From positions 1 to 49,272 of the forward strand of contig CAJNYT010000219.1 in assembly GCA_905331485.1 (NCBI GenBank): a DNA stretch of 49,272 nucleotides, given 5' to 3'. Positions 7,576 to 39,127 of this stretch are shown one piece after another. Position 1 is the stretch's first letter. Each line of letters starts with the position of its first letter. Source of the stretch: Rotaria socialis (Eukaryota). Position numbers and translations under genes: made by a program. Below the pieces are notes generated by a model. That model searched no databases. It was not told the origin of the DNA and was given only the letters and a program-made list of their open reading frames with translations.

Positions 7576-9954
7576 TTAGACTTCTTTAAATAATATTCCG
7601 TAGGGTCGAACATTCTGTGAATTGTTACACGTCCATATATCTCGATTGTGCTTTGCGATCGAACTATTATTAATTCTCACTTGAAACATAACTTGCAATT
7701 GTCGGCCATTGTATGGTGTTGGCCTAGAGTAGTGTCTACTCCCGGAATATGATGGATTAGGCGATAAATATATGCCTCGACCATGAGCAGAACCATTAAC
7801 AATAGGTATCCCATTACTACCTCCAGCAATTAAACCATTACGTAGTATAGCTAAAGCATTGGCAGTTGCAGTACCATGATAAGCTACAGGCCATGCATCT
7901 TTGCCCTCCGCTAGCCATTCAGCATTTTCATATTTTCCAAGTACTTTAATAGCCTTTCTATACCATCCGCATGGCCTTGTATAAGGTTCTGGTCCACGTT
8001 GAAAAGTTCGACCGGCATCATTTCTTGTTGTAAAATCGTAGTCGTAAGTGCTATCAAGAAACTCTTCATCTAGCATAACACGATTTACAAAACGATTAGT
8101 CCGAGCAGTAGCACTTGAAAAATGTGGAATATAAGCTGCAATTGAACTCTGATTGTATTGATAAAATCGAACGTTTTGATCATCTTCCCATCGATTTATA
8201 TCATTATCAATATTCCAATAACTTAATCGAATACTTTCAGGACATGTATATTCAGATGGTTCATTTATTATTAATAGTGGACAATGCTCTTTTTTATCAC
8301 TAAATTGAATATGATCAGCTTTGAAATGAATAACTGATATAATTCGATTATAATTTTCTTCTAATGTTCCTTTGTCCGGTACATAATCTTCGTTTTTCCA
8401 TACAGTATTTGGTAAGGATTTACTTACTACGGACTTTGATTCTGATTCTTGTGCTATTTTATATTCCATTATTCGAGAAGAATAATACATAACAGCATTA
8501 CTTTCATACATATCAGCCTTTTCACACTGAGGACACTTTATTTTTACAGTAGAATTAGACTCTTGTTTAATGGTTGATGTTAGTTTATCATTTAATCTTT
8601 TACAGCACTGGTAACAAAATAAAGCTGAACAATTTGGATTAAGACATAATCTATGTTTTTCAGGTATTAAACGACAATATAAACATTCTAAAGCCGAAGT
8701 TCCTTCCATTTCAAATTTATCAATAATTTTTGATTTACGGTATTCTGATAATCGAACTTTCTTGTAACATGTTGGACAATGATGTTCATGATTTGTATTA
8801 TCACAACTGGATTCAATACAAATGCGACAAAATACTTGTGTACAATATGGGCATTCTAAATTATCATCATTAAGTTGTGATAAACAATTTAGACATTCAG
8901 GTTTATCTATGAAAATTAATGAAGATGTTGACGGTTTATTAATTAAAGTAGCTGAATTAAAATCCGTTTCAACTGCTTGTGCTAAATTAGTTTCATTGGA
9001 TGGCGTTTCTTTTTTTGAGGATATAATTGGATTTGACTGAGTAGGATTTATTTTCTTAATGTTAACTTTATCAATCTGATTATTCAATTCATTGATTTTT
9101 GTTGATATCTTCATCCAATTGCATGATGATTTTAAATTATCGATCAAGAAATCGTTGCTCCCAATAGAAATTGTTGTTGATTTTTTATTTCCAATTGTTT
9201 GTTTTGCTTGCTGGGCGGATTTAATCACATTGATGGTCTCAACTGGAAACATTAAAATAATTGTATTATTATCCAATCGAGCTTCACATTCATAATTTAT
9301 TATAGCAAATTTATCCTTATTGATGTCTGAAACTTTTTGACAGCGATCACTAGGTTGGACTGCATTAATCTGAGATGACCCTATATCTCCGTCGACGATA
9401 GTATCAGGCTGAATATTAAATTTTAATTGAACAATAGAACCAGGATTAATTCCTAAATCCAACATTGGAATATATGCATTTTTATTTAATGAGTAATATT
9501 TTCCATTAGCCATAATTCCTTGCGCATAGCGACCGTCGCAACATCTTACTTTACAAAATTGAGATAACAATAAACGATCATAGGGTAATGCTATTAATAA
9601 TGGATAATCATATATTTGGACTGATTTGAACATGGCCGTTTTTATTAATTTAATATGTGACACGTCAGCATTAGCTGAAATGAATATTTTTTCTAGTAAT
9701 TCAAAGTAATTTTCTACATTCATTGTAATTTTTTCTGATAAATGATTAGTTTGAATCATTTTACCAATATGTTGACATAATTTATTATATCTGAGTGGAT
9801 GAATTAATTGGGACGAAGGAATAATTCCCATTTTAATTTCAGTTATTGGCCAATATCTGAGATCTTGATCTTTACTAACAGCGCTAATAGGTTTATTATA
9901 ATCAGAATTTTCACTTTCTAATTGATTAGTGTTATCGGCAATTAAATGAAACAT
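7576..9954 (-). CDS. 792-aa protein: two Cys/His zinc-finger modules (RING/IBR-like) plus a C-terminal ADP-ribosyltransferase-fold (H-Y type, PARP/NEURL4-like) domain
   Basis: Single uninterrupted ORF starting at ATG.
- Zinc modules: CLNCLSQLNDDNLECPYCTQVFCRICIESSCDNTNHEHHCPTCYKK and CLYCRLIPEKHRLCLNPNCSALFCYQCCKRL...KCPQCEK.
- C-terminus: RPCGWYRKAIKVLGKYENAEWLAEGKDAWPVAYHGTATANALAILRNGL...AHGRGIYLSPNPSYS...VRPYGILFKEV. This shows the His (xYHGT) and Tyr (GxGIYxS) signatures of the PARP-type ART fold. Confidence 0.65.
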   Translation of the reverse strand: MFHLIADNTNQLESENSDYNKPISAVSKDQDLRYWPITEIKMGIIPSSQLIHPLRYNKLCQHIGKMIQTNHLSEKITMNVENYFELLEKIFISANADVSHIKLIKTAMFKSVQIYDYPLLIALPYDRLLLSQFCKVRCCDGRYAQGIMANGKYYSLNKNAYIPMLDLGINPGSIVQLKFNIQPDTIVDGDIGSSQINAVQPSDRCQKVSDINKDKFAIINYECEARLDNNTIILMFPVETINVIKSAQQAKQTIGNKKSTTISIGSNDFLIDNLKSSCNWMKISTKINELNNQIDKVNIKKINPTQSNPIISSKKETPSNETNLAQAVETDFNSATLINKPSTSSLIFIDKPECLNCLSQLNDDNLECPYCTQVFCRICIESSCDNTNHEHHCPTCYKKVRLSEYRKSKIIDKFEMEGTSALECLYCRLIPEKHRLCLNPNCSALFCYQCCKRLNDKLTSTIKQESNSTVKIKCPQCEKADMYESNAVMYYSSRIMEYKIAQESESKSVVSKSLPNTVWKNEDYVPDKGTLEENYNRIISVIHFKADHIQFSDKKEHCPLLIINEPSEYTCPESIRLSYWNIDNDINRWEDDQNVRFYQYNQSSIAAYIPHFSSATARTNRFVNRVMLDEEFLDSTYDYDFTTRNDAGRTFQRGPEPYTRPCGWYRKAIKVLGKYENAEWLAEGKDAWPVAYHGTATANALAILRNGLIAGGSNGIPIVNGSAHGRGIYLSPNPSYSGSRHYSRPTPYNGRQLQVMFQVRINNSSIAKHNRDIWTCNNSQNVRPYGILFKEV

Positions 9955-10016
9955 AATTAATTGTAAAACTGAAATGGACTCATTTTCTGATAATAGTGTT
10001 TTTGATTCTTTACGTT

Positions 10017-39100: not shown

Positions 39101-39127
39101 ACCAATTTCCAACTACAGATAACATGA
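33101..39127 (+). CDS. PARP4: PARP4 (vault PARP)-like gene: BRCT, PARP regulatory, PARP catalytic (H-Y-E), VIT, vWA and C-terminal region; about 19 exons
   Basis: Exon model: 33101-33259, 33314-33521, 33570-33703, 33761-34057, 34123-34260, 34308-34463, 34514-34674, 34725-34862, 34922-35207, 35282-35432, 35499-35638, 35704-36580, 37139-37212, 37275-38049, 38177-38485, 38543-38639, 38700-38722, 38942-39003. These sum to 4185 nt = 1395 codons in one frame. A tentative last exon is 39071-39127.

Motifs:
- BRCT: GKSIVLELG...TDYVLTT...RRAKRLGLPVVNVEYV
- PRD: FYSLIPH
- Catalytic: QLFHGS, GYGIYFSD, DNEYAIY
- VIT: VVLYQVYHNTSSIPIEAKYVFPLDENSTVCGFEAHI
- vWA MIDAS: IFIVDLSNSMDG, LLSDGH. Confidence 0.85.

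Follow-up and report, generated by a model that had tools for sequence, protein, structure and literature searches.

The 49,272-nt contig CAJNYT010000219.1 of the bdelloid rotifer Rotaria socialis (assembly GCA_905331485.1), hereafter the window, carries within about 31 kb four genes with an ADP-ribosyltransferase (ART) fold, together with a WWE domain, a paracaspase-like protease and a PurZ-like purine-nucleotide enzyme. This region appears to be a mosaic of at least ten reshuffled cassettes, each of them bounded by telomere repeats, and we consider it reasonably probable that the ART genes became neighbours by cassette shuffling in a subtelomere-like compartment, and not as members of one co-regulated island. 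A mosaic is preferred to a coordinated island because each gene has its own cassette, one of the genes is disrupted and relatives do not have the genes side by side.

The telomeric and subtelomeric regions of bdelloids are said to have been treated by Gladyshev, Meselson and Arkhipova in 2008. The bdelloid telomere repeat is (TGTGGG)n, and in bdelloid subtelomeres transposons, foreign genes and rearrangements are overrepresented (PMC7943196, PMC8494291). In the window there are 27 telomere-like (TGTGGG)n runs, as against 0-1 in shuffled sequence, and among them are 10 head-to-head pairs in which a G-run is followed by a spacer of 15-52 nt and then by a C-run; the reverse order was found 0 times. 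When the window was considered with all the Rotaria loci fetched, the junctions outside it coming from loci L012, L015, L019, L022, L024 and L025, the count was 20 G-then-C pairs versus 0 in reverse, with spacers of 5-52 nt. The ten junctions of the window lie at 6862-6960 (a G-run, a 16-nt spacer and nine copies of ACACCC), 11455-11508, 12794-12868, 13399-13511, 21250-21304, 23097-23163, 24859-24957, 25436-25498, 27730-27781 and 39770-39827. At the gene-dense loci L018, L021 and L023, on the other hand, there are no telomere-like runs. We found no description of ordered G-then-C pairs delimiting cassettes in the papers that could be searched.

The cassettes have the form 5'-(CCCACA)n ... (TGTGGG)n-3', with the C-run on the left and the G-run on the right. 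Such a pattern is expected of a DNA fragment with telomere repeats capping both ends. The main cassettes contain, respectively, the PurZ-like gene; a gene with RING-like and PARP-like domains (RING/PARP); a gene joining WWE and ART domains (WWE-ART); the paracaspase-like gene with a tRNA-Ser gene; a gene joining ART and TPR domains (TPR-ART); a glycosyltransferase gene with a PARP4-like gene; and a calmodulin gene and what lies beyond it. The four ART-fold genes are thus in four different cassettes, bounded by the ten junctions, in agreement with the initial annotation of this DNA, which had placed them in separate cassettes. The junction at 11455-11508 separates the RING/PARP and WWE-ART cassettes, those at 25436-25498 and 27730-27781 form the left and right edges of the TPR-ART cassette, and that at 39770-39827 stands between the PARP4-like and calmodulin genes.

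Two sources of such repeats were considered and found no support. The spacers of the junctions are unrelated in sequence, therefore the junctions are not a repeat family, and a foldback or miniature inverted-repeat transposable element family with telomere-like arms does not agree with spacers of 5-52 nt whose sequences are unrelated. An array of Terminon/Athena retroelements is not supported either: no reverse transcriptase was found among the open reading frames (ORFs) of at least 100 amino acids (aa) and no hammerhead ribozyme was recognised with Rfam. Moreover, the Terminon/Athena model predicts repeats in the same orientation, not G-then-C pairs (PMC6431247).

The inventory of the initial annotation holds for the most part, its elements being present at or close to the positions given, with the corrections described below. 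The co-location of the ART genes in the window is a real arrangement. It is not an assembly artefact because both halves of the region are spanned, with the same layout, by a single 48.7-kb contig of the independent assembly GCA_965120325.2; this contig and the absence of Ns in the window (Ns = 0) also rule out a chimera. Two contigs of GCA_905332275.1 match the window at 100% identity, and several R. socialis assemblies at NCBI encode the TPR-ART ORF (624 aa) and the PurZ-like ORF (360 aa) identically. The WWE-ART and TPR-ART genes are probably also together on one contig of 181,398 bp, since this is the length both of the longest contig of the WWE-ART cluster and of the TPR-ART contig.

Enzymes of the H-Y-E and R-S-E types share the ART fold. 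The four ART-fold genes are of different lineages, as had been noted from the start; two are H-Y PARP-like and two R-S-E of different families. Tandem duplication was rejected as their origin because they belong to different families and the family hidden Markov model (HMM) connects only the two R-S-E genes, and these weakly. The initial annotation spoke of two unrelated ART clades; the distinction of lineages stands, and "unrelated" is too strong given the common fold.

The TPR-ART gene (25833-27707, + strand), described earlier as an R-S-E ART fused to TPRs, is confirmed as such and is predicted to encode an intact C3/HopU1-like R-S-E enzyme of 624 aa, in which a receiver-like alpha/beta N-terminal domain and the ART domain precede the TPRs. 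A Pfam scan of the whole protein listed only TPRs; with the TPRs removed, PF03496 was matched at E 3.6e-08 (33.4 bits, cut-off 23.4). The expected Arg, Ser-Thr-Ser/Thr and Glu-x-Glu motifs are present (R at 26625, S at 26706, ExE at 26868/26874), and among 45 homologues R265, S292 and E346 never vary and E348 hardly does. The AlphaFold2 models are confident (pLDDT 86 and 83.5), and in Foldseek the model with pLDDT 83.5 gave HopU1 as its top match (2.3e-08), followed by C3, Certhrax and ExoS. By structure comparison, the 140 N-terminal residues form an alpha/beta domain with weak likeness to receiver domains. Its homologues have PF01129 or PF03496 and go by the name of arginine ADP-ribosyltransferases. 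Six R. socialis assemblies were found to contain the protein, and its sequence is the same in all of them. Judging by sequence, it comes from a very large family of bdelloid proteins that combine receiver-like, C3-like ART and TPR parts: in a global protein library, matches to the R-S-E ART domain occur in 3897 clusters at 50% identity (in 2713 of them at E<=1e-10), and among the clusters at 90% identity labelled R. socialis there are at least 11 TPR-ART and at least 7 WWE-ART clusters (at least 18 together). The segment at 3361-3555, formerly taken for a fragment of another R-S-E ART, proved to be a TPR tail without an ART part. The family ART HMM has no match there, tblastn with the family proteins reaches only their last TPR units, and Pfam gives only weak TPR matches. 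This C-terminal fragment of an ART-TPR family gene (3355-3600, - strand) ends exactly at a telomeric C-strand run at 3596-3624.

The WWE-ART gene (11543-12446, - strand) had been annotated as an R-S-E ART fused to a WWE domain at 11543-12551. Both domains are there, with an intact WWE (PF02825, 6.2e-08), a match to ADPrib_exo_Tox (1e-10) and the residues R (11861), S (11774) and ExE (11651) kept. The ART domain, on the other hand, has lost 53 codons and is frameshifted: residues 175-227 of the R. magnacalcarata orthologue P0121, which has 354 aa, are without counterpart, a loss of about 160 nt that removes N-terminal helices of the ART, and the reading frame changes at nt 11925/6. The family ART HMM accordingly matches only positions 68-187 of 201, and the window copy, in a family whose members have about 345-360 aa, does not contain a complete ART domain in a single frame. 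Six R. socialis assemblies cover the gene, and the truncation and frameshift occur in every one of them; gene callers bridge the defect with an invented intron. The gene is broken in R. socialis. In one R. socialis assembly (locus L002, 1046-1741, - strand) there is an extra inverted partial copy in which the ART is intact, with 97% identity to residues 123-354 of the R. magnacalcarata protein. In another assembly (locus L009, 1-1768) the WWE-ART segment is inverted and adjoins the paracaspase region.

The RING-RING-PARP-like gene (7576-10688, - strand) is bdelloid-specific and was first delimited at 7576-9954 as an H-Y-type ART fused to zinc fingers. The PARP domain with its His and Tyr was confirmed, the RING-like Cys clusters have a weak match to RNF4, and the real end of the gene is at 10688. 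The gene is a single ORF of 1037 aa in four other R. socialis assemblies; in the window and in GCA_905332275.1 a 1-bp deletion (CCC to CC, near nt 10033) splits it into 223 and 792 aa. Two RING-like Cys/His clusters lie at about 8524-8895 (RNF4 RING match at E 0.006, no Pfam RING), and the orthologue from A. ricciae is named in UniRef "RING-type domain-containing protein". The 3' end encodes the PARP-like domain. The portion 7576-9954 matches PF00644 at E 4.2e-07 (30.1 bits, cut-off 26.7), and a profile built from eight orthologues finds PARP15, PARP14 and PARP4 (6e-04 to 7e-03); human PARP4 catalytic structures are among its matches. The His (7876) and Tyr (7768) align to those of PARP15/14, in YHGT and GIYLSP. 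At the third site of the triad (7636, Ile in the window) all orthologues that reach it have Ile or Val and not Glu, and the next residue upstream is variable; this call comes from alignment by eye, the site being taken as the position before a conserved Trp, as the profile alignment stops earlier. The catalytic Glu is required for growth of poly-ADP-ribose chains, and Ile or Val at the third site agrees with mono-ADP-ribosylating PARPs. The protein is probably, to judge from these residues, a mono-ADP-ribosyltransferase or inactive. The family is small and was seen only in bdelloids and in rotifer-like metagenome contigs; the R. socialis protein is 96% identical to that of R. magnacalcarata. 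In Rotaria Silwood-1 the orthologue P0201 (locus L022, about 7892-7933) stops just before the PARP His-Tyr core, and its catalytic part seems to have been lost or left unassembled.

The fourth gene (33101-39127, + strand) is multi-exon and resembles PARP4, a conserved animal vault-type gene, with BRCT-like, PARP catalytic, VIT and VWA domains. It had been called a full PARP4-like gene with an intact H-Y-E triad, and this holds: the stitched exons match PF00644 at 1.6e-26 over profile positions 3-197 of 199, and H (34822, LFHGS), Y (35001, GIYFS) and E (35288, DNEYAIY) are all in place. VIT (1.9e-34) and VWA (1e-10) follow the catalytic domain, and the N-terminal BRCT match is weak (PF00533, E 0.013, 16.2 bits, cut-off 21.3). 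The 3' end is provisionally placed at 39127, as in the initial annotation, where the last open frame also stops. A glycosyltransferase gene of the bacterial macrolide type (28479-30007, - strand, 460 aa, EryCIII/MGT-like, NCBIfam MGT 7e-18) shares this cassette and is likely to have been horizontally acquired. Downstream, beyond the junction at 39770-39827, there is a multi-exon calmodulin gene (39966-41700, + strand). Several public gene models fuse the two across this junction into products of 2174 aa with EF-hands, which is probably an annotation error.

For the two genes tested, TPR-ART and RING/PARP, the neighbourhoods are not maintained in relatives. The closest homologues of TPR-ART (70-73% identity), in Silwood-1 and Silwood-2, have a hexokinase gene after them, followed in Silwood-1 by 2-oxoglutarate (2OG) oxygenase and ERM genes, and within 10 kb of them there is no glycosyltransferase, PARP4 or paracaspase gene. 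The RING/PARP orthologue is found amid GTPase, methyltransferase and NmrA genes in A. ricciae and amid CFAP91 and 7tm genes in a metagenomic rotifer, with no WWE-ART or PurZ-like gene near it in either. In R. socialis itself, five paralogues (three TPR-ART and two WWE-ART) are distributed over four sites amid genes for a proteasome subunit, URO-D, Josephin, CorA and others, and no ART gene of another type occurs within 10 kb at these four sites. The TPR-ART cassette, at 25599-27723, is homologous almost end to end to positions 9744-11894 of the Silwood-1 locus L012; junctions border it at similar points in both species, and beyond them the DNA is unrelated. It is as if such units were moved or replaced whole.

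We propose that chromosome breakage would be the initial event, after which the broken ends would be healed with telomere repeats and the telomere-capped pieces rejoined, giving head-to-head junctions, and that foreign DNA could be captured into the same arrays. In a compartment rich in expanded families and foreign genes, the joining and reshuffling of cassettes would then make neighbours of ART genes. The array does contain genes of foreign or bacterial type (the PurZ-like gene and the macrolide-family glycosyltransferase), and the R. socialis assemblies vary in structure, as in the inverted WWE-ART segment of L009 and the extra partial copy of L002. Some points weigh against this reading. 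About 100 kb of flanks at the four other R. socialis ART sites held one extra ART gene, a tandem copy, and the window is denser, so that selection for co-location may have acted. In Silwood-1 a second, unrelated ART gene lies 5.7 kb from the TPR-ART cassette, which could represent a recurrent ART-ART association; by the same token, ART genes may be common in telomere-repeat-rich regions. Furthermore, the break-heal-join origin of the junctions is a proposal, the subtelomere-like label is taken from repeat content, and the enrichment of this compartment in ART genes would be an extrapolation from a handful of loci.

The initial annotation suggested that the region may be an NAD/ADP-ribose defence or stress island. 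On such a reading, ART writers, WWE reader, paracaspase and nucleotide enzyme would have been selected together and co-regulated. The presence of four ART-fold genes with the WWE, paracaspase and PurZ-like partners in 31 kb, a density above that of the four other R. socialis ART sites, and the two nearby ART genes of Silwood-1 speak for it, but we regard it as unlikely and did not retain it, given that the neighbourhoods are unconserved for the two genes tested (TPR-ART and RING/PARP), that a frameshifting deletion affects WWE-ART in 6 of the 6 covering assemblies, that PARP4 is a conserved vault-type gene, and that the ART and other cassette genes lie on both strands in mixed orientations with telomeric junctions in between. 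PADLOC returned only generic caspase (1e-10) and TPR (5e-05) matches and recognised no described system. A related notion, that telomere-capped cassettes are units for capturing, storing and reshuffling conflict genes and that the array is a working "nursery" of immune genes co-induced on infection, similar to the subtelomeric contingency-gene arrays of parasites and fungi, appears to us equally improbable. Literature searches on bdelloid ARTs and PARP expansions and on R. socialis infection data yielded nothing usable. R. socialis is a non-desiccating species (PMC7943196), and therefore the desiccation test proposed with the initial annotation is unsuited to it.

Pure chance would suffice if the genome were saturated with evenly spread ART genes and no compartment had any effect. 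The 3897 clusters matched by the R-S-E domain and the at least 11 TPR-ART and 7 WWE-ART clusters of R. socialis lend some weight to this possibility, which is nevertheless quite unlikely in our opinion. Assemblies of R. socialis have about 147-151 Mb and about 34,000 genes (PMC7943196). If N ART-fold genes are placed uniformly in 150 Mb (PMC7943196), the expected number of groups of at least four within 31.5 kb is about 0.003 at N=200, 0.09 at N=500 and 1.3 at N=1000, so one such cluster needs some 1000 ART-fold genes among about 34,000; if 200 ART genes are confined to 15% of the genome, it is about 0.6. The cluster is thus surprising if ART genes are placed uniformly, and ordinary if they are enriched in a compartment. 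Moreover, only one further ART gene, a tandem copy, was met in about 100 kb around other ART genes, and apart from it no extra ART occurs at the loci that are free of telomere repeats. It could also be argued that most of the listed genes are decaying pseudogenes without present function, as WWE-ART is disrupted, RING/PARP is frameshifted in this assembly, its Silwood-1 orthologue stops before the PARP core, and fragments of TPR, Hsp70-like and Pif1/Helitron-like helicase genes are scattered in the window. We hold this to be very unlikely, because the frames of TPR-ART, PARP4-like, paracaspase, PurZ-like and glycosyltransferase genes are intact with their catalytic residues present, four assemblies have an unbroken RING/PARP ORF, with 96% identity to the R. 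magnacalcarata protein, and the TPR-ART protein is identical in six R. socialis assemblies. Cassette shuffling in a subtelomere-like compartment is the reading that we retain.

The gene at 4280-5362 (- strand, intronless, 360 aa), in its own cassette at 3624-6862, was annotated as an atypical purine-nucleotide enzyme, and it is indeed of the short PurA/PurZ type (Adenylsucc_synt, 8e-42). The NCBIfam models for PurZ and for archaeal PurA tie at about 218 bits, both below cut-off (PurZ 218.1 versus 300), and the best match among solved structures is PurZ of phage phiVC8 (3e-42). The P-loop FGSCGKG has the PurZ-specific Ser and matches the Y21-G22-S23 pocket of S-2L PurZ (PMC8342488), and in the alignment the segment ELTTVTKKLRRVF (TTVT loop) matches the conserved T273-T276 loop of the same enzyme (PMC8342488). 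The protein is 82% identical to that of an ORF near PolA on phage-like metagenomic contigs of 116-146 kb and 42% GC, which also encode SSB, an ATPase, an intein-containing DNA methyltransferase, thymidylate kinase and dUTPase; an 87% identical copy occurs on a contig with 34% GC (loci L026-L028 overall). A pattern scan of bacterial and archaeal genomes gave no close relative. Contamination was rejected as the source, given that five R. socialis assemblies have the gene in unbroken sequence with rotifer genes and telomere repeats. These similarities point to a phage-derived PurZ-like gene in Rotaria and to a candidate phage-to-animal transfer. No DatZ, MazZ or polymerase partner was found in the window, and our literature searches returned no paper on PurZ in rotifers.

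The paracaspase-like protease was likewise confirmed, at 17900-18720 (- strand), by a MALT1-like fold match and a His/Cys dyad. The stand-alone gene encodes 252 aa and has a 62-nt intron at 18199-18260. It matches PF00656 (Peptidase_C14) at 2.3e-28, and among solved structures MALT1 is the best match at 2.5e-17, compared with 1e-03 for caspases and metacaspases. The dyad (His 18460, Cys 18301) aligns to that of MALT1, in SGHG and DCCR. The 252-aa product is the protease domain alone, with none of the death and Ig domains of type 1 paracaspases. The same cassette contains a tRNA-Ser (GGA) gene at 20127-20198 (- strand).

Among the larger ORFs of the stretches without annotation, Pfam recognised only an Hsp70-like fragment (44571-45119, + strand, profile positions 376-500 only) and a weak match to the C-terminal part of a Pif1/UvrD-type helicase of the Helitron kind (48319-48993, - strand). 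Both look like remnants. There are also two inverted copies of about 185 nt (2170-2355 and 2588-2773, 88% identical, about 230 nt apart) and two tandem duplications in stretches without recognised genes, one at 45836-46032 (98 nt x 2, 100% identical) and the other at 21727-21936 (112 nt x 1.9, 77% identical).

An ART island, if true, would be a rare operon-like clustering of immune genes in an animal. The evidence favours a known compartment of bdelloid genomes, and the cluster in itself is then of modest interest, as a further and well-resolved example of a cassette mosaic. Two by-products may outweigh the ART cluster in interest. One is the PurZ-like gene, as a candidate case of the enzyme that initiates 2-aminoadenine DNA synthesis having passed from a phage to an animal. 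The other is the set of ordered junctions, with a cassette in a different context elsewhere, which give a concrete and testable view of the way bdelloids build up and rearrange foreign and rapidly evolving genes.

Several of the genes discussed here can be compared with known systems. The PurZ-like gene shares with phage PurZ of the 2-aminoadenine pathway the phiVC8 match, the P-loop Ser and the TTVT loop, and differs in residing in an animal genome, in standing in the window without DatZ, MazZ or a polymerase and in scoring below the NCBIfam cut-off. MALT1 is the best structural match of the rotifer paracaspase, with an aligned dyad, whereas the rotifer protein is without death or Ig domains. 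The PARP4-like gene has the same order of BRCT-like, PARP catalytic H-Y-E, VIT and VWA domains as human PARP4 (vault PARP), although its BRCT match is weak and the likeness to the vault PARP is seen at the sequence level. TPR-ART shares the predicted fold, the R, the S-T-T and the E-x-E with bacterial ARTs of the C3/HopU1/ExoS type and with the animal ARTC ecto-enzymes, but in this protein the domain is fused to a receiver-like N-terminal domain and C-terminal TPRs, within a very large bdelloid family of putative ADP-ribosyltransferases. As in the WWE ADP-ribose systems (RNF146, PARP11/12/14 and DTX-type ligases), the rotifer WWE-ART gene joins WWE to an ADP-ribosylation enzyme; here, however, the partner is an R-S-E toxin-type ART and not a PARP or RING. 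This architecture recurs in many bdelloid proteins, and the window copy of it is truncated.

As in prokaryotic defence islands, the window has ART, TPR, caspase-fold and nucleotide-enzyme modules side by side. Unlike these islands, it consists of separately transcribed eukaryotic genes in both orientations, whose co-occurrence is not conserved and in which PADLOC recognised no system. There is also a parallel with bdelloid subtelomeres (Simion et al. 2021, PMC8494291; Nowell et al. 2021, PMC7943196), whose interstitial (TGTGGG)n, foreign genes, transposon fragments, rearrangements and haplotype differences are also seen in the window, which is distinguished from them by strictly ordered, head-to-head pairs of repeats that bound cassettes of the size of genes.

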